A stretch of 32,000 bases of DNA from Acholeplasma laidlawii PG-8A. GTDB taxonomy: Bacteria > Bacillota_I > Bacilli_A > Acholeplasmatales > Acholeplasmataceae. The stretch covers positions 1,320,001-1,352,000 of the forward strand of contig NC_010163.1 in assembly GCF_000018785.1 (NCBI RefSeq), given 5' to 3'. Shown one piece after another: positions 2,235 through 15,949 of this stretch; within the stretch, counting starts at the first letter, position 1; each line of letters starts with the position of its first letter. The position numbers and the translations under genes were made by a program. Under the pieces are notes generated by a model that had not been told where the DNA came from, did not search any database, and saw only the letters and a list, made by a program, of their open reading frames with translations.

Positions 2235-2672
2235 TCAATACCTGTCCAAATCCTTATAGTAATTCTTTATATGTGCTTGCCACGTTTTATTGGTATCAAG
2301 ATTATATTTATCGTATAAGTGTTTATTAAGTTTATTCAGTATGGTAAAAACTTCTTCTGAAGTGGCAATGAATCTAATCTCTTGATCTTCTTTTTTTACT
2401 GCATGAGCAATGGAATTTCTTAGTTCTCGAAGCCTTAACCAATCTGCTTCTTGCAATCCATCTCTTTGTTTCGCTTCATATAGTTCACGAGCACATATAA
2501 TAGATAAATGCATCATGCTCATGGGGACATCAATGTATGCGGGATGTTTAATTCTAAATTCACTCACTGAATCTTTTGTTTTTTTATGCTTTTTCTCAAC
2601 TTTATTATTGTAGTAGTTTAGCAACAATGTGGCAGTTAAATAATTCAGTTCAAGAGATGTAGGTGTACTCAT
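2235..2672 (-). CDS. HEPN domain protein (R-x4-H motif)
   Basis: 145-aa ORF. LRELRNSIAHA is a textbook HEPN RNxxxH active-site motif in a small helical protein. A GAGGAA RBS lies 9 nt upstream. Confidence 0.6.
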   Translation of the reverse strand: MSTPTSLELNYLTATLLLNYYNNKVEKKHKKTKDSVSEFRIKHPAYIDVPMSMMHLSIICARELYEAKQRDGLQEADWLRLRELRNSIAHAVKKEDQEIRFIATSEEVFTILNKLNKHLYDKYNLDTNKTWQAHIKNYYKDLDRY

Positions 2673-2838: not shown

Positions 2839-4284
2839 CTAATCCTTTAATAGTATTGAAACTGCATTATATCCTATGAAAAAATCTATCTCTAATACAA
2901 GGATATTATCAACTAAACTCATATTTTCAGAAACTTCAAAAACTAAATTGAATTCATAAATACCTGGTTCTTTGATTTCCAAATCTATCCATGAATAATC
3001 ATTAATCGGTCTTAAACTGGCAAAATCAATAAAACCATAATATTTACTAATATCCTTATTAATATATGTGTTTTCTAAATGAAAATCGTTGTCATTATCA
3101 AGAGTATGATTTTTACCTTCAGTTTTTAATATACTAACATTAAGAATTAGATACTTGCTACCTTGAGGAGCGATTAAATGATTTTCTGAGTCGTTTTTAT
3201 TCAGCGTAGTTGCCTCATTTGAAAAACTCGCATTGGTAATCTTTATGGTATACACACCGTTTTCTAATATAGTATCTTCATTTATATTTATATATTCATC
3301 AAGAGGTACAAGTTCCTGATAATTTGCATACACAGTATAAACCAATTCATTCTCTGATGCATAAAAATATAAATCTCTGATTTTTGTTTCTGGGCTATCT
3401 TTTACACTTGACCAGTATAGAAATTGATAACCTTCTTTATAAGGTGTTGCAGTAGGCAATTCTTCAATTTGTCCTTTAGAAATGTTTATATCTATAATTT
3501 CTGATGAAGTTCCACCGTTGAAATCAAAATGAACATTATAATCATGAAGATTAGGACGTAAGATTAGAAAAACATTTTGTTCAATTCTATCCCAAGTATC
3601 AATTGAAAGCACCATTACTTGGGTAGAATTCAAAAATTCATCTGTTAAGAGAAAAGATAATTCAATGAATGAAGAAACACCATTATTTCTATATGGTTCA
3701 AATGTCTCAAATTGATTTGGATCACCTTTGATCACTTTATTTTTATTGCTAACTGCATTCTCAATACTACCTGTTATGTAATCCTCAGCAAAGCCAAGAG
3801 TTTCTTCAATGACATTAATGTCTCCTCCTATTGCACCAGATAACATAGCAGAAAAAGTAGCATTTGCCAATGCTTCCATAAAAATAGACATATTTGAGCG
3901 GGCATACATATCAACCAACCTTAATTCAAAATATTCAGATTTAATATCTTGTTGATTTACATTGATATCAGTATTCCATTGTTCAACTCTTATACTTAAA
4001 TTAAGCATATATTTTTCATCTTCTGTTTCAACAGCATTGATGCCAACCACCTTCATGAAAATTTCATCTGCAAAAACAAATTCTTCATATAAAAAGTTGT
4101 TGTTTTCATCATATTCCTCAACCAGTGGAGGATTATTTGTTGGTGGATTTTGATTAGTTATTGAGTTGTATATTGCTATACCAACTATTGCTAATATTAT
4201 GACTCCAAAAAGAATCCTTATAGACATTGGAATCTTTATTGTGATTAATTCTACAAACTTTTGTATGCCTTCTAAAAATTTCAT
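2839..4284 (-). CDS. Membrane-anchored surface protein with a Listeria-Bacteroides (InlB B-type) repeat and a DUF4352-like C-terminus
   Basis: 481-aa ORF with an AGGAGAG RBS. It has one N-terminal TM helix (ILFGVIILAIVGIAIY). HFDFNGGTSS...PYKEGYQFLYWS matches the FD-NGG...GY-F-GW repeat. The C-terminal GSKYLILNVSILKTEG...F-L region resembles DUF4352. Confidence 0.7.
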   Translation of the reverse strand: MKFLEGIQKFVELITIKIPMSIRILFGVIILAIVGIAIYNSITNQNPPTNNPPLVEEYDENNNFLYEEFVFADEIFMKVVGINAVETEDEKYMLNLSIRVEQWNTDINVNQQDIKSEYFELRLVDMYARSNMSIFMEALANATFSAMLSGAIGGDINVIEETLGFAEDYITGSIENAVSNKNKVIKGDPNQFETFEPYRNNGVSSFIELSFLLTDEFLNSTQVMVLSIDTWDRIEQNVFLILRPNLHDYNVHFDFNGGTSSEIIDINISKGQIEELPTATPYKEGYQFLYWSSVKDSPETKIRDLYFYASENELVYTVYANYQELVPLDEYININEDTILENGVYTIKITNASFSNEATTLNKNDSENHLIAPQGSKYLILNVSILKTEGKNHTLDNDNDFHLENTYINKDISKYYGFIDFASLRPINDYSWIDLEIKEPGIYEFNLVFEVSENMSLVDNILVLEIDFFIGYNAVSILLKD

Positions 4285-4332
4285 TTTCTCTCCTAATGTT
4301 AAACTACTTGCAATAGTTCACTTTATAAACCC

Positions 4333-4341
4333 ATTCTACCA
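4333..4341 (-). promoter_or_regulatory. Extended -10 promoter element (TGgTAGAAT) for the 481-aa gene
   Basis: The minus strand reads TGGTAGAAT about 49 nt upstream of the ATG at 4284, immediately after the hsdR terminator. The -35 element is weak. Confidence 0.35.
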
Positions 4342-4386
4342 TAAAAGAAAAGCCGTTAACATACTTGTTTATGATGTTATCGGCTT
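4342..4386 (-). terminator. Rho-independent terminator of the hsd operon
   Basis: Minus-strand hairpin AAGCCGATAACAT / ATGTTAACGGCTT (13 bp, 1 mismatch) followed by TTCTTTTAT, 71 nt downstream of the hsdR stop. Confidence 0.7.
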
Positions 4387-4457
4387 ACTGTATCTGTTTT
4401 ACATTTGTTGATAGATTTTTGCATAATAATTTCTTTTAGAGTTAATCGCTAATATTA

Positions 4458-7451
4458 TTATTTTCTAAGCTTTTTATAAAGTTCTTTAGCCATTGCATCC
4501 ATTACTCTTTCGTAAAAGGATGTGTCTGTAAATAATTTTTCAAATGACTCGTGATTTTCTGTAAATAATCTTAAGGCTATATCCTTGAATTTATCAGGAA
4601 ATAAACTCTTAATGAACATTTCTGGATTATTTTCTTTTGCGTATTGAGCATATTTTTTAACTTCTGGATCATTCATGAACATCTCAAAGATACCAGAAAT
4701 AATGACTTTATCACTATCAGTGAATTGTCCCATATATTGCTCATTAACCTTATCAATGATACTTTGAAGAGTGTCTTTAGATTTAGGTTTTCTTTTTGCA
4801 TCTACTGATTGCTCAGGTTTTAAATCAACTGATGTTTTTTCTAGTTCTATGCTTCCTTTATATGTCTCTTTAAGTTTGGCAAACTCTAGATTAATCTTGT
4901 CATCAATACTAATTTTTTCTGCAGTATCTTTAGGTAATAGATTGATTAGATAAGAAATGAACATAAACTCTTTAAAGAGTTCTTTATCATTAATTCTTAC
5001 GATTTGGGTGATATATGAATAGGCATGATTGAATTTTCTTAATAGATCCCTATATTCATATTTTTGTTTTTCATCCAACTCAAGATACTGATCTATGACA
5101 GGTTTTAGTATACTTGTTACACGGCCAAGTGCTTTATCGTCTTGTTTCTTTGCTGCATCTATTTTGATTTTGGCAAAAAGATCCACATCTTGATCGTTAT
5201 ATAGCATATAACTGTGTATCTTAGTTCTTAAATCATAGACACGATTATAATCTGTTTGGCCATCTAAATAGGTTGTTTCAAAGAATGGTTGGAATGACTT
5301 TTTCATGTCTTCATGCGTGTTTACAAAATCCATGACAAAAGTGTCTACCTTACCTGGATATACGCGATTCATTCTAGAAAGCGTTTGAACAGCATTCACA
5401 CCATGAAGTTTTTTATCAACATACATGGAATGTAGTAACGGTTCATCAAATCCTGTTTGATATTTATTTGCAACCACTAAGATATTGAATTTATCGCTTC
5501 TAAATGCTTTTCTGAGTTTCTTATCAGAATTAATATAATGACCTTCACTATCAATATTCATTTCAGCTTCTCTATATGATTTACCATCTAGCTTAACCTC
5601 TCCAGAAAATGCAACAAGTACCCCAATATTTGAAGTTATATCTGGATTATCTTTAATGTATTCTTGAATTGCATGATAATATCGGACAGCATTATGCCTT
5701 GAGTCAGCAACAACCATCGCTTTCGCTTTACCATCAATTCTAAATTGACCATTGTTTAAGAAGTTGTCCATAATAAGTTCGGTTTTCTTGTGAATGGTAA
5801 ACCCATGTTCTTTATAATAGCGAACTAAGACTCTCTTAGCTTGTCCTTCGATAACTTCAGGATTGTCTCTTGTTGTTCTAACTATCTTAAATTGATCTTG
5901 AAGTGTTGTATAGTATTTTAAGACATCTAAAATAAATCCTTCTTCAATGGCTTGTCTCATAGAGTAAACATGAAATGGTTCATGTTTTCCAGTGGATGGA
6001 TTTCTTCTGCCAAAAAGTTCAATTGTCTTATTTTTAGGCGTTGCAGTGAATGCAAAGAAAGATTGATTACTGTGTTGTCCTTGGGCTAATACTTCTGCAA
6101 CAAGTTCATCCGTATCATCGACTTCATCTTCTTCGATACCTTCCATCTCTGCATACTCTTTAATTGCAACTTTCTTATCAATCAGTGCCCTTCTTAAGGT
6201 CTTAGCACTTGCACCAGTTTGACCTTGATGCGCTTCATCCACGATAATCGCAAACTTTCTACCTTCCATTTCATCGAAATCTTTATAGGCAAACAAGAAT
6301 TTTTGAATGGTACAAATAATAATACGTTTCTTATCGTTAATTGCTTCCGTAAGGCCTCTTGAACGCTTTTTATCATCAATTGCTTCAACTAATCCAGCTC
6401 TATGCTCAAAGCCGTTAATCGTATCTTGTAGTTGTGAATCAAGTACTACACGGTCAGTAACAATGATAACTGAATCAAATATTGGTTTATCATCTATATC
6501 ATGGACAGATGCCAATCTATATGCAATCCAAGCGATAGAATTTGATTTACCGGATCCCGCACTATGTTCAATTAAATATTTTTGACCTACACCATTATCT
6601 TTAACGTCCGATAATACTTTCTTAACGACATCATACTGATGATATCTAGGAAATATTATTTTCTTTGAGTCTTTAGGATTAGAAATAAAACGATGAAGTA
6701 TGTCTATGATGGAATTTTTAGATAGTACATCTTCCCATAGATATGATGTGGTATAACCATAAGGGTTTTGCGGATTACCAGCGCCACCACTGACACCAGA
6801 ACCATTAGATCCTTGATTGAAAGGTAAGAAATGTGTATCAGCACCTTTAAGTTCTGTCGTCATCCATGTTTCATATAGGTCTACAGCAAAATAAACCAAT
6901 ATTCTATGATTGAATCTGAATATCAGTTCTTTTGGATCGCGATTGTAACGCCATTGGTGCATCGCATTTCTATAATCTTGTCCCTTTAATTGGTTTTTAA
7001 GTTCGATTGCAATAAAAGGAATACCATTAATGGATAGGACCATATCAATCGTATTGTTATTGAAAGGTGAATATGCAAATTGTCTTGTTACACCTAATAT
7101 GTTACCTTCATAACGTTCAACCAAAGTTGGATTCAACTCTGATTCAGGTTTAAAGAAACAGATAAAAAGGTCTATCCCCATATCTTTTATGCCATTTCTT
7201 AATACATGAAGAAGCCCGTGATGACTAATAGAATCTTCTAGTCTGCGATATAGTTTATTAGGTGCTTCATCACCATAATACTTTTCATATCGTTCCCATG
7301 ATTTACTTTGAGTCTTTTTAATAAACTCTACAAGGATATCTAGATAAATACCTTTTGATACATCATATCCTTGCATAGAAAGTTTTCTATACTCTTGATT
7401 AATCAAATGAGACTCTATATCCTCTTCAAACCTTTTTTCATTATCTTTCAT
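4458..7451 (-). CDS. hsdR: Type I restriction enzyme R subunit (HsdR)
   Basis: 997-aa ORF with a helicase Walker A motif (HSAGSGKSNS), a DEAH box (IIVDEAHQGQ), an N-terminal nuclease-type region and the typical C-terminal helical domain. It is the last gene after hsdM/hsdS. Confidence 0.95.
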   Translation of the reverse strand: MKDNEKRFEEDIESHLINQEYRKLSMQGYDVSKGIYLDILVEFIKKTQSKSWERYEKYYGDEAPNKLYRRLEDSISHHGLLHVLRNGIKDMGIDLFICFFKPESELNPTLVERYEGNILGVTRQFAYSPFNNNTIDMVLSINGIPFIAIELKNQLKGQDYRNAMHQWRYNRDPKELIFRFNHRILVYFAVDLYETWMTTELKGADTHFLPFNQGSNGSGVSGGAGNPQNPYGYTTSYLWEDVLSKNSIIDILHRFISNPKDSKKIIFPRYHQYDVVKKVLSDVKDNGVGQKYLIEHSAGSGKSNSIAWIAYRLASVHDIDDKPIFDSVIIVTDRVVLDSQLQDTINGFEHRAGLVEAIDDKKRSRGLTEAINDKKRIIICTIQKFLFAYKDFDEMEGRKFAIIVDEAHQGQTGASAKTLRRALIDKKVAIKEYAEMEGIEEDEVDDTDELVAEVLAQGQHSNQSFFAFTATPKNKTIELFGRRNPSTGKHEPFHVYSMRQAIEEGFILDVLKYYTTLQDQFKIVRTTRDNPEVIEGQAKRVLVRYYKEHGFTIHKKTELIMDNFLNNGQFRIDGKAKAMVVADSRHNAVRYYHAIQEYIKDNPDITSNIGVLVAFSGEVKLDGKSYREAEMNIDSEGHYINSDKKLRKAFRSDKFNILVVANKYQTGFDEPLLHSMYVDKKLHGVNAVQTLSRMNRVYPGKVDTFVMDFVNTHEDMKKSFQPFFETTYLDGQTDYNRVYDLRTKIHSYMLYNDQDVDLFAKIKIDAAKKQDDKALGRVTSILKPVIDQYLELDEKQKYEYRDLLRKFNHAYSYITQIVRINDKELFKEFMFISYLINLLPKDTAEKISIDDKINLEFAKLKETYKGSIELEKTSVDLKPEQSVDAKRKPKSKDTLQSIIDKVNEQYMGQFTDSDKVIISGIFEMFMNDPEVKKYAQYAKENNPEMFIKSLFPDKFKDIALRLFTENHESFEKLFTDTSFYERVMDAMAKELYKKLRK

Positions 7452-7455
7452 AGAT

Positions 7456-7878
7456 TCACCCCTTTAAAGTGTTTCTTTTCTTTACTAAAAATAATATTGT
7501 GAAAATCGTAATGATAGTTATCCCTAAAATACTCCAAGAAATTATGATGATATGTTCTTGTAAAAACATAATGAGTGCACTCAATGCAAATCCAATCATC
7601 GTTGAAACTACAAAATAAACATATTTCATTGCATCTGAATTAAATAGTCCGATTGAATTAAATATAATCCCAACCAAAGCATAAGACAGTATGAATGTCA
7701 GTGATTTAACAATGATTTCAATTGATGGAGATAATCCAAAATCAGTTAAACTTAATTGAAATATCCATAGAGTCAGTTTAATGAATTCACTAGTCAAATC
7801 TAGTAGGACCGAGAATACTCCAGTAGCAATTAGTATCAATAATATAATTCCACCAATCATTGACCTTACATCTCTCAT
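7456..7878 (-). CDS. Small integral membrane protein (about 4 TM helices) embedded in the Type I R-M operon
   Basis: 140-aa ORF with four roughly 20-aa hydrophobic segments. Its ATG directly abuts the hsdS stop codon, and its TGA lies 4 nt before the hsdR ATG. The hsdR RBS (AAGGGGTGA) lies in its last codons. Confidence 0.75.
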   Translation of the reverse strand: MRDVRSMIGGIILLILIATGVFSVLLDLTSEFIKLTLWIFQLSLTDFGLSPSIEIIVKSLTFILSYALVGIIFNSIGLFNSDAMKYVYFVVSTMIGFALSALIMFLQEHIIIISWSILGITIITIFTILFLVKKRNTLKG

Positions 7879-9198
7879 TTATGAAACTTCTTTCTTTCCT
7901 GTTACGTATTCGTAGATGAGGGATTTTTTATAATTATACAGTTCATCTATTTTTTTATTTTTTAGTTCAATAAGTTCATCAAGCCTTAAAACTTTATTGT
8001 CTAAATACTTAATTATTTTATTTTGATCATCTATAGGGGGTAATACAAACCTTAAGCCTCTTATAATTGTCATTGAAATATTCGGTTGTGCAGTAGCCTT
8101 TAAGTATTGATCTTTTTCGAAATTTGCTGCATTACTCATCAAGTAATATAACAAATATCTTAATGATATTCTATCTTCATGTGACTTTAAAATTTCAATT
8201 TTCGCCACATTTGGTGCTAATTGATGCAGTTTTTCTTCATTAAAAATAGCAACTTCGCCTACACCTGCTCCAATAAAAGTCATCAATATACATGGCTTAT
8301 CTAAATTAGATCTTACCAATTTTCTGGCAGTATCATTATTTATATATCCAGTAAAATCTTTAATAAATTTATCGTTTTTTATATTTTGAGCTCTAACAAT
8401 CGGAATATCATCAAATTCATTTATGTTCTTACTAAGAATCTCAGTAAATTCAAAACCAGCTAGTTTAGTTACAAATGTATGCCGAGAAATTAATGATACA
8501 TCATAATTTTTAGGGATTAATCCTATCCATTTGACATTACTATCTTTAAATTCTACATTTGGGTTTAAACCTTTAGTAACAACCTCACTAATAAGTGATT
8601 GCTTGTACTCTTTGAGTTTTTCGATTTGTTGCTTTTGATTATCTATCAATTTATTAATTATCAATGTTTTATTGCCTACATATAAGCTTATTCTAATTTG
8701 ATTATTTAACTCAGGGATAATCAAAGGTAAATTATTAACTATATCTGCATTTAAATTACTTTGGGTTGTTCCATTAGAAAAGTAGAAAATATTTTCTTTA
8801 GCTATCATAAGAAGAAATTTCAAGTAGTTTTTATCAATAGAAATTCCCATTTTAGGTATTAATGCTAAAATTGCTTGGCTAATTGTAGCCTTTGTTTTCA
8901 ACTCAGAAACCGAACCTAAAGATGCATAAATAGAGTACAAGATTGTTCCTGATTTAAGAATTTTTAAGTTTTTGTTTTTAATTCCTTTATCAGTCAGCTT
9001 TTTAGTCGTGTCAGTTATATACTCTGTATTAGTCATGTCAGATATGTTGACAAAACAAACACCTTCTTCTGCATAGTTACTATCTACTGATGATAAAGGA
9101 GTTCCACCGCTATATAGTTCATAAAAATGCTTGATTTTCATTTTCTTCCAGTTATCCGGAACGACACCATAAATATAATTTACATCATTCATTTCCAA
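7879..9198 (-). CDS. hsdS: Type I restriction enzyme specificity subunit (HsdS), two TRDs
   Basis: 439-aa ORF with two variable regions separated by a conserved helical spacer (KLIDNQKQQIEKLKEYKQSLISEVVTKG), repeated at the C-terminus (ELKNKKIDELYNYKKSLIYEYVTGK). It overlaps the hsdM end by 14 nt. Confidence 0.9.
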   Translation of the reverse strand: MEMNDVNYIYGVVPDNWKKMKIKHFYELYSGGTPLSSVDSNYAEEGVCFVNISDMTNTEYITDTTKKLTDKGIKNKNLKILKSGTILYSIYASLGSVSELKTKATISQAILALIPKMGISIDKNYLKFLLMIAKENIFYFSNGTTQSNLNADIVNNLPLIIPELNNQIRISLYVGNKTLIINKLIDNQKQQIEKLKEYKQSLISEVVTKGLNPNVEFKDSNVKWIGLIPKNYDVSLISRHTFVTKLAGFEFTEILSKNINEFDDIPIVRAQNIKNDKFIKDFTGYINNDTARKLVRSNLDKPCILMTFIGAGVGEVAIFNEEKLHQLAPNVAKIEILKSHEDRISLRYLLYYLMSNAANFEKDQYLKATAQPNISMTIIRGLRFVLPPIDDQNKIIKYLDNKVLRLDELIELKNKKIDELYNYKKSLIYEYVTGKKEVS

Positions 9199-10966
9199 AT
9201 AACTCCTTCATCAGTTGTGTCTCTTCTTCTTCAAGTTGTTTAATCTCAGCGAATATATCTGAGGAGGCCTTTGGAGGAATAAACTTATAAAACAGTCTTG
9301 TAAATGGTATTTCATAACCGACTTTGTCTTTGCTTCGATCCATCCAAGCTGATGAATTATAAGGTAATACATTATCTTTAAAGAAAGCTTCGATATTTTC
9401 TTGTAATGGTACCAATTCAGTATCACGTTTCTTAGAGTCTGCTTGAAGTTTTCCTTTTTTAAGAATTGGTTTACCATTTTCATCTGTAATTGGTGATTCA
9501 ACAGTTACTTTTGTGTACCCAAAGAAATCATTATCAAAGATTTTTGATTCAACAACTAAGTCATTTTCTTCATATTTTACTTCTTTGAAATCTAAATAGG
9601 CTTTAGTAATTAAGTCAATTGATGTATCATCTAGGTCAACACGCTTCTTACCAATGTTTTTTCTTCTTTTCACATAGCAATTAGAAGCATCAATGAGTTG
9701 AATTTTTCCTAATCGTTCTTTATTTTTATTTTTAGAAACTATCCAAACATATGTTGATATACCAGTATTGTAGAAAAGGTCAGTTGGTAATTGAATAATT
9801 GCTTCTAACAAATCACTTTCAATTAAGTATTTTCTAATTTCACTCGGACCACTACCAGCATCTCCAGTAAAGAGTGAAGACCCGTTTTGAATGATTGCCA
9901 TTCTACCAGAACCTTCTTTTAATTTCTTTACACCATTAAGTAGGAAGAGCATTTGTCCATCACTAATTGCAGGCAACCCTGGTCCAAATCTGCCATCATA
10001 ACCTAATTTAGCATATTCTTGTTTGACTTGTTTTTCTTCAAGCTTCCAATCAATACCAAACGGTGGATTAGAAATGATATAGTCAAATTCATAATTTGAA
10101 AATTGATCGTCACTTAGTGTATCGCCAAACTTCATGTTTTGAGCGTTTCCACCTTTGATGAGCATATCGGCTTTTGCGATTGCATAGGTTTCTGGATTAA
10201 ACTCTTGACCAAATAGAGATAACTTTGAATCGAAGTTAATCTCTTTCATTTTCTCATCAAGACAACCTAACATCTGTGATGTTCCCATAGCCATGTCATA
10301 TGCAGTTTTAACGACACCATTTTGTTTAATATGTTCTTTTTCGTTTGCAACTAATAACTCAGCCATCAAATAAATGATGTCTCTTGAAGTAAAGTGAGCC
10401 CCTGCTTGTTCATCATAGGATTCAGAGAACTTACGGATAAGTTCTTCAAAAATATAGCCCATGTCCATGGAGGTGATTTTATCCGGATGCATATCAGCTT
10501 TCTTAGAATTAAACTCCTGTATAACAACATAAAGGACATTCCCTTTATGCATTGTTTCTAGGACTTGTTCAAATTTAAAGTTGGAAATAATATCTTTTAC
10601 GTTATCAGAGAATCCTTTTAAGTATGTATCAAAATTAGATGCGATGTTATCTGGATCAGCTAAAAGGTTTTCAAATGTAAATGGGCTAACATTATAAAAG
10701 TCATATCCAGTAGTTTTGCATATTAATCCATCTTTAATTGCATCAATCGTTTTTTGTTCATTTAATTTCTTATTGAGTGATAAAACTTCCTGTTTCGTTT
10801 CTTTTAAAGCGTCATCAAATCTTTTTAGTACCGTCATCGGTAAGATAACCTTACCGTACTCATGTGGCTTAAATAATCCAACAAGATGATTAGCGATTGC
10901 CCAAATTAGATTTGCTTTCTCTTGAATATTGGTTGTAGTTAATTTACCTATCTCTGCAGTTGTCAT
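9185..10966 (-). CDS. hsdM: Type I restriction enzyme methyltransferase subunit (HsdM)
   Basis: 593-aa ORF with a canonical N6-adenine MTase motif IV (IISNPPFGIDW), an HsdM_N-like N-terminus (NLIWAIANHL..) and the downstream GRMAIIQNGSSLF / IIQLPTDLFYNTGI motifs. Confidence 0.95.
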   Translation of the reverse strand: MTTAEIGKLTTTNIQEKANLIWAIANHLVGLFKPHEYGKVILPMTVLKRFDDALKETKQEVLSLNKKLNEQKTIDAIKDGLICKTTGYDFYNVSPFTFENLLADPDNIASNFDTYLKGFSDNVKDIISNFKFEQVLETMHKGNVLYVVIQEFNSKKADMHPDKITSMDMGYIFEELIRKFSESYDEQAGAHFTSRDIIYLMAELLVANEKEHIKQNGVVKTAYDMAMGTSQMLGCLDEKMKEINFDSKLSLFGQEFNPETYAIAKADMLIKGGNAQNMKFGDTLSDDQFSNYEFDYIISNPPFGIDWKLEEKQVKQEYAKLGYDGRFGPGLPAISDGQMLFLLNGVKKLKEGSGRMAIIQNGSSLFTGDAGSGPSEIRKYLIESDLLEAIIQLPTDLFYNTGISTYVWIVSKNKNKERLGKIQLIDASNCYVKRRKNIGKKRVDLDDTSIDLITKAYLDFKEVKYEENDLVVESKIFDNDFFGYTKVTVESPITDENGKPILKKGKLQADSKKRDTELVPLQENIEAFFKDNVLPYNSSAWMDRSKDKVGYEIPFTRLFYKFIPPKASSDIFAEIKQLEEEETQLMKELFGNE

Positions 10967-11108: not shown

Positions 11109-11630
11109 CTAATATTCATCTAAAGCATCGAAATAGCGTGTTGATATAATGGCTTTTTCGAAGTTTGTTTTAGTAATTTTTAATTTGTTATTTGCTTCTA
11201 AAAATTGTACACGTGGATACTCTGATGGATTACTTTTTATTGTAGCTATAAGACTAGAATTATCACCCATACCTGTTTGACTATGCGGAATAGGTCCAAT
11301 TAGTAGATCTGAATACTTTGTTGAAAACCTAAGTGTATCAACCGGGTATCTCTTGAGTTCTGAATAGTCATCAATAAACTCAACATTATTTAGATTAATA
11401 TCTAGTCTAGTTAATACTCCTTGGAAGTCCTTTTTCTTTCCCGCTAATGATCCAAATACTAGGATTTTCATTAGTCTCGTGTTTACAGAAATGCTTGTTT
11501 CCTCAAATACAATACCATATCGTTCTAAAATCTCTTCAATTAATCCATCTTCATTAGCACGGTCAACTTCACTTGATATTTTTCTAATAATTTTTTGTTT
11601 TATCTCGGATAACTGCTTTGCATTATACAC
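11109..11630 (-). CDS. Uncharacterised 173-aa protein coupled to the M-S fusion gene
   Basis: The GTG start overlaps the upstream TAG stop by 1 nt (TAGTG), with a strong AGAGGAGG RBS 10 nt upstream. It has a helical N-terminus followed by an alpha/beta region (KILVFGS...YSDLLIGPIPHS) that loosely resembles DUF2325. An LD-x14-ELK pattern could alternatively be a PD-(D/E)xK nuclease core. Neither assignment is secure. Confidence 0.6.
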   Translation of the reverse strand: MYNAKQLSEIKQKIIRKISSEVDRANEDGLIEEILERYGIVFEETSISVNTRLMKILVFGSLAGKKKDFQGVLTRLDINLNNVEFIDDYSELKRYPVDTLRFSTKYSDLLIGPIPHSQTGMGDNSSLIATIKSNPSEYPRVQFLEANNKLKITKTNFEKAIISTRYFDALDEY

Positions 11631-13309
11631 TAAGATAGTACCTCCTCTATTTCTTCATAATAGAAGTTTTTGAGTTCGTCTTCTATCTTTAGGATTTCTG
11701 CCTTAAGTGCCATTAAAGAAGATAGTTTTCTATTATATTTTTTAGATATATTATATTGAACATCTAGTTGAGGTAGTGGGATAATTATATTCGAAAGTTC
11801 TGTAGCGTTAATTGTAATTATCGATATACCTTTTTGAATACTCTTTAATAATAATTGTCCTTGATCTGATTCTAAGAAAACCTTAAGAAATGTTGGATTC
11901 AATTTACTCTTGTCAACACGAGCAATGATCATACCACCAGTTACAATAATTTTATCCTTTGGTTCAAAATCGATGACTGCTATTTTAACCTTAGATGATT
12001 TGCTTGTTATAATGACATCCTCATATTCCAAAGCAAATTTATCTAACTTACCATCTTTATTATCGATATTTTGTAGATTTGATTCATCAATGAGTCCGTC
12101 TTGTATATCACTAGATGTAAGCAATTTATAACCTGTATTTTCATCAGTTAATGCTTCTTGAAAGTTTCTAACTGTGTATTGTGAGCCTGTAAAAACATGT
12201 GCAACCTCACTCAATTTAACACCATTTATTGGTGAATCTATTGTTAATAGTGCTGTCGAAGGAATCCAATTAGATAAATCTGTTAATTCTGAAATATCTT
12301 TTTTAGCTACATCATTTCCATAATAGAAATCTATTATTTGTTTTACATCTACTTTAATAGGTCCATTAAACTTTCTTTTTGATGAGAACATACTCGCATC
12401 AAATAGACGAACATTCTTATTATTTTTACTAAAGATAAGTAAGAATAACTTGATCGATGTATTATCGACAATTCCTTGTGGTAACTCAATGATACCTTCA
12501 AGCATGCCACTCTTTAGTATTTCATTTCGATAGTCTCTATCAACTGCACTAAATAATGTACGACCAGTAACAAGCGCTACCGCTCTAGCGTCTTCACCTT
12601 TTAAATTGCTTAATAATTTATCAATAAATATCCATTCAACAGAGTTTCGAGTGGATAGAACAATATTTTTAAAAATAGAAATATAGTTTAGATCATTACC
12701 CATTAACTTCATACCTAAAGGTGGATAGACAAACCCTTTATTATAAGTTAGTTCGTATTTATCGGTTAGGATATTAGCATAGTTAATCTTACTCTTTACC
12801 GAAGAATCAAAGGTGAATATTTCTAGTACCATCTTAGAAAGTGCATGTTGATTATAGTTAATTTCCACACCATATAAAGCAGACAACTCAATTGAACGTT
12901 CCTGAGCTAAATTCAATGTACCAATTAAAAAACCACCTAATCCACTACCTAAATCAAAAAGTGAATCACCATTTGATAGTTCAAGTAACTCTGAAGCTAA
13001 TGCTAACAGATTATCATTCGAATTATCCATAAATCTCTGTTTTATAAATAGAGAACTAGAAACGAATCCTTTTATTTCATCGAAACTTAAGTCCAAAAAC
13101 ATATTTTCTAAATCAAATTTTAGGTCACTTGGTATTCTTTCTAATGATTCTCCAGCAATGTTAAGTAATTCTGTTTCATTTCCCGGTATTAAATCATTAC
13201 TATTGCAATAATCATATGCAAATGAAATAACAAATTCAACCACCATTTCTTCAGGCACACGTCCTCTGACTCTGTTTGCAAATTCCCATACTAAATTTTT
13301 ATTTTCCAT
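11630..13309 (-). CDS. HsdM-like N6-adenine methyltransferase fused to a single HsdS-type TRD, with non-canonical motif IV (YPPL)
   Basis: 559-aa ORF with SAM motif I (LFDLGSGLGGFLIG), motif II-like YGVEIN and the HsdM-type ARAVALVTGRTLFS / GIIELPQGI motifs. Where NPPF/Y is expected the sequence reads FVYPPLG. The C-terminal roughly 200 aa form one TRD plus an HsdS conserved helix (IIPLPQLDVQYNISKKYNRKLSSLMALKAEILKIEDEL). Confidence 0.8.
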   Translation of the reverse strand: MENKNLVWEFANRVRGRVPEEMVVEFVISFAYDYCNSNDLIPGNETELLNIAGESLERIPSDLKFDLENMFLDLSFDEIKGFVSSSLFIKQRFMDNSNDNLLALASELLELSNGDSLFDLGSGLGGFLIGTLNLAQERSIELSALYGVEINYNQHALSKMVLEIFTFDSSVKSKINYANILTDKYELTYNKGFVYPPLGMKLMGNDLNYISIFKNIVLSTRNSVEWIFIDKLLSNLKGEDARAVALVTGRTLFSAVDRDYRNEILKSGMLEGIIELPQGIVDNTSIKLFLLIFSKNNKNVRLFDASMFSSKRKFNGPIKVDVKQIIDFYYGNDVAKKDISELTDLSNWIPSTALLTIDSPINGVKLSEVAHVFTGSQYTVRNFQEALTDENTGYKLLTSSDIQDGLIDESNLQNIDNKDGKLDKFALEYEDVIITSKSSKVKIAVIDFEPKDKIIVTGGMIIARVDKSKLNPTFLKVFLESDQGQLLLKSIQKGISIITINATELSNIIIPLPQLDVQYNISKKYNRKLSSLMALKAEILKIEDELKNFYYEEIEEVLS

Positions 13310-13458: not shown

Positions 13459-13543
13459 TGGTGCGGGTGACAGGACTTGAACCTGCATGCCGTAAAGCGC
13501 TAGATCCTAAGTCTAGTGCGTCTGCCAATTTCGCCACACCCGC
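13459..13543 (-). tRNA. tRNA-Leu (anticodon UAG), type II with a long variable arm, CCA encoded
   Basis: Hand-folded. Acceptor GCGGGTG/CACCCGC plus A-CCA; anticodon stem CTAGA/TCTAG with loop CTTAGGA; T-loop TTCAAGT. Confidence 0.85.
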
Positions 13544-13570
13544 ATGGATAGTGGACTTTCTTTATAAAAA

Positions 13571-13645
13571 TGGCAGGCCCAGCAGGATTTGAACCTACGA
13601 GTGACGGAGTCAAAGTCCGTTGCCTTACCGCTTGGCTATGGGCCT
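13571..13645 (-). tRNA. tRNA-Gln (anticodon UUG), CCA encoded
   Basis: Hand-folded. Acceptor AGGCCCA/TGGGCCT plus G-CCA; anticodon stem ACGGA/TCCGT with loop CTTTGAC; T-loop TTCAAAT. Confidence 0.85.
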
Positions 13646-13668
13646 ACATTTTATTTAATTCGCAATTA

Positions 13669-13745
13669 TGGGGCGGCCGAGGGGAATTGAACCCCCGAGT
13701 GTCGGCGCCACAAGCCGATGCGTTAACCACTTCGCCACAACCGCC
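13669..13745 (-). tRNA. tRNA-His (anticodon GUG) with genomically encoded G-1, CCA encoded
   Basis: Hand-folded. G-1 followed by acceptor GCGGTTG/CGGCCGC plus C-CCA; anticodon stem TCGGC/GCCGA with loop TTGTGGC; T-loop TTCAATT. Confidence 0.85.
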
Positions 13746-15069: not shown

Positions 15070-15765
15070 ATGACTACAGGTCAAAGACTTGCAAAACTAA
15101 GAAAAGATCACAATTATACTCAAGAGGAGTTAGGTGAGTTACTAGATGTATCTAGACAATCTATATCCAAATGGGAATCTGATCAAGCATTTCCAGAAAC
15201 ACAAAAATTAATAGAGTTATCCAAACTCTATCAGACTTCAGTAGATTATCTACTTGGCAATGAAAACGAACATACACAATCCAATATAGGTGATTCTACT
15301 CATACCAATGAACCATTTAAAATGACACCTAAGTTATTTACAATGATTTGGGGTGTCACATATTTTGTAGTGATGTTACTTCTATATGCAGTACCCATAT
15401 TAAAAGTTACAATCACTACAGATCCGTTCTTTGGTAACATTGGTTTTACACTCAATATCACCAGTTATGACTTACTTAAAAACGGACCTGGTGATTACGG
15501 CAACTTCTTAGTATATTTGGGTTTGTTTGCTTTAATTGCATTTACTGCACTATCTGTCTTTATCTTTTTTACAAATCATCAAAGACTTTATAAGATACGC
15601 CGAATTATCTCAATCACTGAAGTAATTATATGGGCTATATTTACAGTATCCTTTATAGAAAGTATTCAATTAGGGATCATATTTATTATCTTACTTACTA
15701 TAATTAACCTAATATTACTATTTAAAGTCAAAAATAATCTAATTTCTACACCTATAAGCGCTTAA
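15070..15765 (+). CDS. XRE-family HTH protein with a multi-pass membrane C-terminal domain
   Basis: The N-terminal sequence QRLAKLRKDHNYTQEELGELLDVSRQSISKWESDQAFPETQKLIELSKLYQTSVDYLLG is a classic HTH_3 (Cro/C1) domain. The C-terminal half has about 4 hydrophobic helices. An AGGAGGA RBS is present. Confidence 0.85.
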   Translation: MTTGQRLAKLRKDHNYTQEELGELLDVSRQSISKWESDQAFPETQKLIELSKLYQTSVDYLLGNENEHTQSNIGDSTHTNEPFKMTPKLFTMIWGVTYFVVMLLLYAVPILKVTITTDPFFGNIGFTLNITSYDLLKNGPGDYGNFLVYLGLFALIAFTALSVFIFFTNHQRLYKIRRIISITEVIIWAIFTVSFIESIQLGIIFIILLTIINLILLFKVKNNLISTPISA

Positions 15766-15874: not shown

Positions 15875-15949
15875 GGGGGCATGGTGTCAACGGTAGCACA
15901 CAGGTCTCCAAAACCTTTAGTGTGGGTTCGAATCCTGCTGCCCTCGCCA
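15875..15949 (+). tRNA. tRNA-Trp (anticodon CCA), CCA end encoded
   Basis: Hand-folded. Acceptor GGGGGCA/TGCCCTC plus G-CCA; anticodon stem CAGGT/ACCTT with loop CTCCAAA; T-loop TTCGAAT. Confidence 0.85.

Follow-up and report, generated by a model that had tools for sequence, protein, structure and literature searches.

In the genome of Acholeplasma laidlawii PG-8A, a gene encoding a 140-amino-acid (aa) integral membrane protein lies between hsdS and hsdR of a Type I restriction-modification (R-M) operon. We analyzed this gene in a 32,000-nucleotide (nt) stretch of NCBI RefSeq assembly GCF_000018785.1 (contig NC_010163.1, forward-strand positions 1,320,001–1,352,000), referred to below as the window and numbered from its first letter; the gene and its relatives in other genomes are designated ‘TM’, and the coordinates of the window gene refer to the minus strand. 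As judged from sequence comparisons, TM belongs to a previously unnamed protein family that appears to be linked to anti-phage defense loci as portable cargo. We believe that it probably serves as a membrane-level defense add-on and not as an enzyme subunit. The operon comprises the following features:

9185–10966, minus strand: hsdM, the Type I N6-adenine methyltransferase subunit (Pfam HsdM_N and N6_Mtase; PADLOC MTase_I PDLC03029, E=6e-230)
7879–9198, minus strand: hsdS, the specificity subunit with two target-recognition domains (Pfam Methylase_S twice; PADLOC Specificity_I, E ~1e-69)
7456–7878, minus strand: TM, the 140-aa integral membrane protein (open reading frame (ORF), translation, hydropathy, AlphaFold2 (AF2) model, homologs and substitution rates)
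7459–7465, minus strand: the hsdR Shine–Dalgarno sequence AAAGGGG, inside the last sense codons of TM (L-K-G-stop)
4458–7451, minus strand: hsdR, the 997-aa restriction/helicase/nuclease subunit (Pfam HSDR_N, SWI2_SNF2, ResIII and T1R_D3-like; PADLOC REase_I)

The gene order on the minus strand is thus hsdM, hsdS, the 140-aa ORF and hsdR, and the Pfam and PADLOC matches identify the host operon as a Type I R-M system in which HsdM, HsdS and HsdR are all encoded together. The hsdR gene is intact, and its product also matches the TIGR00348 hsdR subfamily model of NCBIfam with a score under the curated cut-off. The end of hsdM overlaps the start of hsdS by 14 nt, the hsdS stop codon (TAA, 7881–7879) abuts the TM start codon (ATG, 7878–7876) with no gap, and the TM stop codon (TGA, 7458–7456) is followed by 4 nt (ATCT, 7455–7452) and then by the hsdR start codon (ATG, 7451–7449). 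A preliminary description of this locus, made from the sequence alone, had given the coordinates of TM and its junctions with hsdS and hsdR, including the ribosome-binding site of hsdR inside TM, correctly in every detail. A scan of the operon found no terminator on the coding strand between hsdM and the end of hsdR, and promoter-like sites were rarer in the operon than in shuffled sequence. Because there is no intergenic room for a promoter of its own and no internal terminator, TM would be expressed from the hsd transcript; by this layout, it is necessarily co-transcribed with hsdS and hsdR. Translational coupling is likely with both hsdS and hsdR, given that the hsdS stop codon abuts the TM start and that the hsdR Shine–Dalgarno sequence lies within the last codons of TM. 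The arrangement agrees with the earlier proposal that TM is co-transcribed and probably co-translated with its neighbors.

TM is a real gene under purifying selection, and not a chance ORF. A protein 100% identical to the window TM is on record from A. laidlawii, and almost all of the 82 close homologs are exactly 140 aa in length. In comparisons with seven other cassettes (Nei–Gojobori), the ratio of nonsynonymous to synonymous substitution rates (dN/dS) was 0.12–0.25 for TM, with dS reaching 1.2–2.2 and synonymous sites saturated across the compared lineages; the same comparison gave values of 0.02–0.05 for hsdR and hsdM. TM identity is 61–94% where HsdR identity is 89–98%, corresponding to roughly fourfold faster evolution of TM. 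HsdS, in turn, is hypervariable between cassettes (28–39% identity, versus 89–98% for HsdR). The junction geometry of the window is identical in seven cassettes (our loci L001, L002, L007, L009, L011, L012 and L019): the ATG of TM follows the hsdS stop immediately, or after 1 nt in L011, and AAAGGGG, AAAGGAG or TAAGGA in the last codons is followed by the stop codon, 4 nt and the hsdR ATG. Because the hsdR ribosome-binding site overlaps the codons of the C-terminal K-G/E residues, part of the constraint on these residues acts at the nucleotide level.

The preliminary description had noted four hydrophobic segments in the protein, and the Kyte–Doolittle profile bears this out with four peaks, at approximately residues 7–26, 55–76, 86–106 and 110–132 (helices TM1 to TM4); the stretch comprising residues 27–44 is moderately hydrophobic and forms an amphipathic helix. 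Basic residues are found at the N-terminus, in the loop 80–85 and in the C-tail, and acidic residues at 27–54 and 108, a distribution that places both ends inside the cell. This charge pattern, including the basic N-tail and C-tail, holds across the family in alignments. The protein is thus predicted to cross the membrane with four helices, to have its amphipathic helix on the outer face and to keep both ends in the cytoplasm. An AF2 model built from 66 diverse sequences is good locally (pLDDT 91.8) but has a pTM of only 0.58; its helices span residues 2–19, 21–44 (with a kink at the conserved G20), 51–76, 82–108 and 110–139. A first AF2 model, built from a shallow alignment of close homologs, was of poor quality: its pLDDT was 73, and TM3 and TM4 ran together as a single helix. 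A Foldseek comparison, which the preliminary description had suggested for a predicted structure, returned no significant match for the AF2 model (pTM 0.58) in either the PDB or BFVD (best E 0.89 in BFVD).

Conservation across the family is concentrated in a core formed by TM2, the cytoplasmic loop 77–85 and TM3 (K/R58, T61, F62, S65, Y66, V69, G70, F73, G77, F79, M84, Y88 and S92), and extends to W38 of the amphipathic helix and to an acidic residue in the turn between TM3 and TM4; TM1, TM4 and the two tails are variable. Several of the conserved residues in the TM2–loop–TM3 hairpin are small or polar (T61, S65, Y66, G70 and S92), and their placement in two helices would fit either tight helix packing or a polar pathway through the membrane. 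The best-conserved loop of the protein is 77–85, with the motif G-x-F-N-S-x-x-M, which is predicted to be cytoplasmic. Our working definition of the family is a protein of 125–150 aa with four membrane helices and both ends cytoplasmic, carrying W-L-F in the amphipathic helix, K/R-x-x-T-F-x-x-S-Y-x-L-V-G-x-I-F in TM2, the loop motif, Y-F-x-x-S-T in TM3, an acidic residue at the TM3/TM4 turn and a basic C-tail. The window TM has these features in three alignments and in the conservation profile.

An exhaustive profile search of 1.84 billion representatives returned 93 clusters, 68 of them at E ≤1e-10 and nearly all with lengths of 125–150 aa. The family is found in low-GC bacteria, with named records from Acholeplasma, Paracholeplasma, Mariniplasma and metagenome-assembled genomes (MAGs) of Bacilli. 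The window TM matched no family in Pfam, NCBIfam, PHROGs or PADLOC, in keeping with the earlier statement that it contains no enzyme motif, and no consistent Pfam or PADLOC match was found among the 66 diverse members, which gave only scattered chance matches to membrane helices. It also had no match among the PADLOC models for defense membrane effectors and sensors (CBASS 2TM and 4TM, SLATT, KwaA, ZorA/B and others), and the suggested likeness to CBASS TM effectors was not borne out; marginal ‘2TM effector’ matches were limited to one or two of the 66 members (E 0.0026 or weaker). A phage holin was considered and rejected, since Phage_holin_3_6 was touched by only two of the 66 members at E ~0.05 and no PHROG was matched; no lysin gene was present in any neighborhood examined. 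Neither a collection of 50,697 phage records nor one of 72,556 plasmids contained a tblastn match to the window TM or to a distant member (P0094), so that a phage or plasmid origin is not supported; the family was seen on only two IMG/VR contigs. In the literature on membrane proteins between hsdS and hsdR, and on Type I R-M systems of Acholeplasma, we found no description of the gene. Rare fusions place C-terminal soluble domains after the membrane module, in P0173, P0083 (228 aa) and P0085 (281 aa). The C-terminus of P0173, a borderline family member (E=9e-4), is a topoisomerase-I-type DNA-binding zinc ribbon (Zn_ribbon_Top1); the extensions of P0083 and P0085 had no Pfam or PDB match.

Within the close clade (≥59% identity), the order hsdM(593)–hsdS–TM(140)–hsdR(997), with lengths in aa, was found in eight of eight loci examined. 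These loci come from Paracholeplasma brassicae, A. manati, A. laidlawii 8195, a Mariniplasma MAG, two Bacilli MAGs and metagenome contigs, and their flanks vary, containing AbiH, GmrSD, AAA_15, DUF4357 or Druantia-like genes. The four-gene cassette moves as a unit, since its flanks differ from locus to locus; it is clearly mobile and moves between genera. In A. laidlawii strain 8195 (L010, NZ_CP126461.2), codon 794 of hsdR has changed from GAA to TAA (10807–10809), a nonsense mutation (E794*) that removes the last ~204 aa of HsdR, and the TM gene is intact; TM is thus tolerated without an intact HsdR. The end of hsdM and the start of hsdS in this strain also differ from the window. Strain 8195 represents a natural hsdR-null background.

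Distant members of the family (20–50% identity) were found in more diverse surroundings. The context sample is small, covering about 14 lineages that were partly seeded from hsd-linked members, and contains the following arrangements:

L032–L035: hsdM, 238-aa gene, hsdS, TM, hsdR (1031 aa, EcoR124_C type), with the same 4-nt gap to hsdR, on an integrase-flanked island with AbiEii
L015: hsdS, 223-aa gene, TM, hsdR (1034 aa, EcoR124_C type)
L020: hsdM, hsdS, hsdR (1056 aa, T1RH-like_C type), TM, T5orf172
L022 and L023: hsdR (1038 aa) and TM, separated by a 1-nt gap
L026 and L036: HsdR-like gene (853 aa, HSDR_N_2), M+S fusion, TM
L025: hsdR, hsdM, hsdS, inverted ORF, integrase, TM, DarT1, NADAR
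L017: Dam-type and N6_N4 methyltransferases and a PDDEXK_11-like gene (weak, below the Pfam cut-off), then TM
L016: AbiH, TM (overlapping), DUF2779, beside two m5C methyltransferases and with RhuM genes nearby
L024 and L030: PDC-M33A/B/C, TM
L027: methyltransferase, TM, DruB/DruD-like genes
L028: Nhi/AbiO-like SLFN helicase, TM
L029: large serine recombinase, TM
L003–L006: V-ATPase operon, gap, then TM, HTH_3, 87-aa gene, SDH_protease, with no recognizable defense context

Recognizable defense genes are present within one or two genes of TM in 12 of these ~14 distinct neighborhoods; seven have R-M genes that are Type I or Type I-like and cover at least five kinds of HsdR. The remaining neighbors include Type II R-M, AbiH, an Nhi/AbiO-like helicase, PDC-M33, Druantia-like genes and DarTG; integrases, recombinases or phage genes are present at several loci, and intergenic gaps of 60–340 nt occur on one or both sides of TM in L025, L028 and L003. 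We considered whether the hsd linkage belongs to one conserved cassette lineage only, and rejected this because the distant members are linked to at least four other HsdR kinds. The preliminary description had made the genomic context of homologs a check on its proposal: the close loci, uniformly hsdS–TM–hsdR, and the mostly defense-linked distant ones do not refute it, while some members lie apart from any R-M system. From these neighborhoods, the link between the TM family and defense is strong.

Two of these contexts deserve additional description. At L003–L006 (8001–10399) the relatives, the most divergent of the close clade, are 146 aa long, 46–48% identical and outside hsd loci; each overlaps the downstream HTH_3 gene, and this gene, the 87-aa ORF and the SDH_protease-family gene form a partner set beside the V-type ATPase operon. 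Druantia-like genes (DruB-/DruD-like PADLOC matches followed by a very large helicase) stand directly after the TM gene in L027 (6002–11691) and directly after hsdR, at the end of the hsd cassette, in P. brassicae (L001, 11775–16423), and the four proteins are 32–64% identical between the two loci. DruA was not among the called genes at either set and was not searched for.

TM and HsdR identities are decoupled across loci: TM is 79% identical between L020 and L036, where the restriction subunits are unrelated; it is only 24% identical between L015 and L032, where HsdR is 67% identical; and between the window and L032 the values are 39% for TM and 22% for HsdR. TM does not, therefore, co-diverge with HsdR. 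In addition, one identical protein (P0195) is located downstream of four different cargoes: an R+MS system, a HaeIII-type R-M system with ThsB-TIR, AbiTii, and an ABC-ATPase cluster. Its constant partners are YpsA (SLOG-like) and T5orf172 downstream, and an 82-aa gene just upstream except beside R+MS; L020 carries a T5orf172 gene without YpsA. The junction occupied by TM in the window is itself variable among related cassettes. Among the closest plasmid relatives of the window HsdR, those from E. faecium (51% identity) have hsdS directly followed by hsdR with an empty junction, and in Selenomonas ruminantium pSRC6 (L043), whose HsdR is 47% identical to that of the window, a RhuM-family gene (3821–4825) lies exactly between hsdS and hsdR. 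Because related cassettes have it either empty or filled with RhuM, the hsdS–hsdR junction can be regarded as a slot for accessory genes, and genes of this type embedded in hsd loci have been described for PrrC (PMC12707154) and for rloA/rloB of Campylobacter jejuni (PMC2928727). The absence of co-divergence, the many systems upstream of P0195, the slot-like junction and the persistence of TM in strain 8195 together favor portable cargo over a co-evolving subunit.

The loci that carry P0195 and its lineage (L036–L041, from gut and other metagenomes) share a constant module of an 82-aa gene, TM, YpsA (SLOG-like, 191 aa) and T5orf172 (228 aa), positioned downstream of a variable slot. The slot contains an R+MS two-gene system, a HaeIII-type R-M system with two ThsB-TIR genes, AbiTii by IS66, or an ABC-ATPase cluster. 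Beside the R+MS system, at L036 and L037, the 82-aa gene is missing, and in L037 both R+MS genes are reduced to fragments. These loci may represent a defense hotspot whose flank is conserved; alternatively, the module may be a multi-gene system, so far undescribed, that pairs a membrane effector with a sensor of the SLOG type.

We tentatively propose, with a little less than even confidence and from comparative evidence, that TM is a portable, membrane-acting and self-contained layer of defense that uses the hsdS–hsdR junction as a slot. At the membrane it would form a largely self-contained second defense layer, acting as a small oligomeric channel or leak, or as a block to DNA entry, with lambda RexB, RonA of the Ronin system and superinfection-exclusion proteins as analogs in action. 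It would ride on constitutively expressed DNA-degrading defense operons and gain from being steadily co-expressed at a low level, and inherited together, with DNA-degrading systems, hsdR above all, and it would not be a subunit recognized specifically by one HsdR.

Several points weigh against this proposal. The channel, leak or entry-block activity is purely conjectural, TM having no homology to any characterized protein. In two or more HsdR families TM is inserted at precisely the hsdS–hsdR junction, each time with the 4-nt spacing, and about half of all TM contexts are Type I; this recurrence and this share suggest a tie to Type I restriction that is more specific than expected of autonomous cargo. 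The sample of contexts is small and partly seeded from hsd-linked members. The cytoplasmic location of the most conserved loop (77–85) would suit contact with a cytoplasmic partner. Finally, in the YpsA/T5orf172 lineage TM may be the effector of a multi-gene system instead of an autonomous one.

The preliminary description had itself proposed a membrane-permeabilizing backup effector, or a membrane tether, controlled by the R-M complex. The first of these ideas corresponds to a guarded abortive-infection effector similar to Ronin or PrrC, in which a depolarizing TM would be held by HsdMS or R2M2S1 and freed by Ocr- or ArdA-like proteins, causing cell death or arrest, and we regard it as doubtful. 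PrrC, a precedent on which it drew, is embedded in the EcoprrI hsd locus (PMC12707154), and experiments on a more direct precedent, the membrane protein RonA linked to hsdS and hsdM, showed it to be lethal alone, suppressed by HsdMS and triggered by Ocr/ArdA (bioRxiv 10.1101/2023.04.06.535777). The embedding of TM in the operon, its position for translational coupling (conserved over dS >1), the recurrence of the S–TM–R position in a second HsdR family and the predicted cytoplasmic exposure of the conserved loop would all be expected of a guarded protein. However, only ~20 residues of TM are exposed to the cytoplasm, leaving little to hold, and the protein neither resembles RonA (61 aa, one membrane helix) nor matches any PADLOC model. 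Close TM relatives stand beside unrelated systems without co-diverging with HsdR, and an identical TM protein occurs without any R-M system upstream. A constitutive toxin should not be tolerated without its cognate inhibitor at the loci where TM is set apart by gaps of 60–340 nt (L025, L028 and L003); in strain 8195 TM is intact beside a nonsense-mutated hsdR, although HsdMS could still restrain it there. Control specifically by the R-M complex is thus somewhat weakened by the lack of co-divergence, the cargoes of P0195, the R-M-free members and strain 8195, while the Ronin precedent continues to speak for it.

A second alternative, distinctly unlikely in our estimation, is that TM is a membrane localizer or sensor which places or activates HsdR, the Druantia helicase or the Nhi-like helicase-nuclease at the site of DNA entry, following the logic of KwaA or ZorAB; by extension, it may keep HsdR off the cell's own chromosome. 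E. coli Type I enzymes have been reported to associate with the cytoplasmic membrane, nearly all of the systems neighboring TM act on DNA, and TM directly adjoins hsdR, upstream or downstream, in several HsdR families. In P0173, the weak family member described above, the zinc ribbon lies on the predicted cytoplasmic side, and Kiwa demonstrates that a four-helix membrane protein can sense a phage-induced membrane change and signal to a DNA-binding partner (PMC11785009). Specific docking is nonetheless implausible for a protein with little soluble surface whose partners would include five HsdR families (~21–29% identity), PDC-M33, AbiH and Type II enzymes; TM does not co-diverge with HsdR, and no similarity to KwaA or ZorA/B was found.

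It is still less probable that TM is a hitch-hiker without any role in defense, such as a small transporter or flippase subunit, a mobile-element maintenance factor or a hotspot-flanking gene. The P0195 lineage, in which TM and its downstream partners form the constant flank of a variable hotspot, has this appearance, as do the integrases, recombinases or phage genes at several loci and the one lineage placed beside a V-ATPase operon, where the partners of TM are limited to an HTH gene and a protease. The three arrangements in which TM is embedded in the hsd operon cannot be explained by a hotspot flank, nor does hitch-hiking account well for purifying selection on TM inside a cassette that moves between genera, or for the defense genes within one or two genes of it in 12 of the ~14 neighborhoods. 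Finally, we consider it very improbable that TM is a regulator of restriction at establishment or following DNA damage (restriction alleviation), in which the co-translated protein would sequester or delay HsdR so that a mobile cassette can enter an unmethylated host, or change specificity, with no lethal effect on it: the cassette is mobile, its HsdS is hypervariable (28–39%, versus 89–98% for HsdR), TM lies immediately before or after hsdR, and alleviation through ClpXP is not known for the Type IC and ID families, which hence need another mechanism, but such a role leaves the members beside AbiH, PDC-M33, Druantia-like, Nhi-like and DarTG genes unexplained, faces the same problem of partner specificity as a tether, and fits poorly with the closest HsdR relatives, which manage without a TM gene.

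The proposal of a self-contained layer can be broadened to the family as a whole, although we consider this extension unlikely: its members might be a portable, partner-independent membrane module of many DNA-targeting defense systems, providing either coupling at the site of entry or a shared kill-switch. Candidate users are several Type I R-M families, Type II R-M, Druantia-like, Nhi-like, PDC-M33 and DarTG systems. If this were true, some Type I systems would have the module as a fourth component of general use, and it would represent a new kind of defense accessory, perhaps especially important in the wall-less Mollicutes, where the membrane is the sole barrier.

Additional features of the window surround the hsd operon. 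Directly upstream of hsdM is a gene for a single-chain 559-aa protein with N6_Mtase and one Methylase_S domain (11630–13309, minus strand), followed by a 173-aa ORF (11109–11630, minus strand) with no family match that overlaps it by 1 nt, starting on the last base of its stop codon. This pair (11109–13309) is kept beside the hsd cassette in P. brassicae (L001) and A. laidlawii 8195 (L010), and may represent a further module for modification or restriction, of an unusual type. A tRNA cluster (Leu-TAG, Gln-TTG and His-GTG; 13459–13744, minus strand) borders the R-M island, with tRNA-Trp (15875–15949, plus strand) 2 kb beyond it, as is typical for integration hotspots; the gene at 15070–15765 is of the cI-like HTH_3 type. 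Downstream of the operon, a 145-aa ORF (2235–2672, minus strand) has no Pfam family; its PADLOC matches, which are weak (E=3.6e-4), fall at the C-terminal end of CARF-HEPN models. This ORF may represent a HEPN-like fragment or a small defense gene.

Type I R-M systems are textbook three-gene systems, in which the embedded PrrC and RonA each revealed a second, abortive layer that senses anti-restriction. Here, an unannotated membrane-protein family has been placed repeatedly and independently beside hsdR and at least six other kinds of defense system, and its repeated recruitment beside hsdR suggests an undescribed functional synergy. If TM is an effector or entry barrier, it would be a new defense gene missed by current defense-finding tools; if it instead serves as a generic membrane adaptor, the view of how restriction is organized in space would change. 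The gene is directly testable, being short and carried by a culturable organism with known phages and a natural hsdR-null strain.

Among known proteins that might act in a comparable manner, superinfection-exclusion proteins such as T4 Imm and lactococcal Sie2009 are small membrane proteins without an enzyme domain that act alone at the point of DNA entry. They are add-on genes on mobile elements, belonging to prophages or phages, whereas the TM family has no match in phage or plasmid records or PHROGs and appears on only two IMG/VR contigs. Lambda RexB, to which the preliminary description had compared the protein, resembles TM in having four membrane helices, no soluble domain and a length of 144 aa (coding sequence of 435 nt including the stop codon). 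RexB is the membrane effector of an abortive-infection pair in a prophage immunity region, while the TM family is chromosomal or island cargo, and no RexA-like partner adjoins the window TM, its neighbors being hsdS and hsdR. Homology was rejected, an hhalign comparison of the 66-sequence profile with RexB giving a probability of 0.36% and E=0.16, with no Pfam match in the window TM or the 66 members.

KwaA of Kiwa and ZorAB of Zorya are likewise small multi-helix membrane proteins encoded beside a DNA-acting defense protein, and the membrane component of Kiwa senses events at infection (PMC11785009). Unlike them, TM has no PADLOC match to KwaA, ZorA or ZorB and no KwaB (DUF4868) or ZorC/D partner, and its partners are many and unrelated. 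PrrC, rloA, rloB and RhuM are, like TM, accessory genes embedded among the subunit genes of Type I R-M operons, but their products are soluble and of unrelated folds, with none in the membrane; PrrC is an ABC-ATPase-like tRNA nuclease. The Ronin system of E. coli ECOR55, in which the cell-death effector RonA is suppressed by HsdMS and triggered by anti-restriction proteins (bioRxiv 10.1101/2023.04.06.535777), likewise ties a small membrane protein genetically to Type I hsd genes, and is the closest functional precedent for the guarded effector first proposed for this locus. RonA has 61 aa and one predicted helix, its loci are without hsdR and it needs an upstream non-coding region, whereas the window TM has 140 aa and four helices, lies between hsdS and hsdR of a complete system, and has relatives also away from hsd genes; no relationship to RonA was detected through PADLOC, whose database version (PADLOC-DB v2.0.0, from 2023) may not include it. 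The general concept of a membrane accessory of a Type I R-M or defense locus therefore has precedents, and in TM that role appears, on the comparisons presented here, to be carried by a new protein family.

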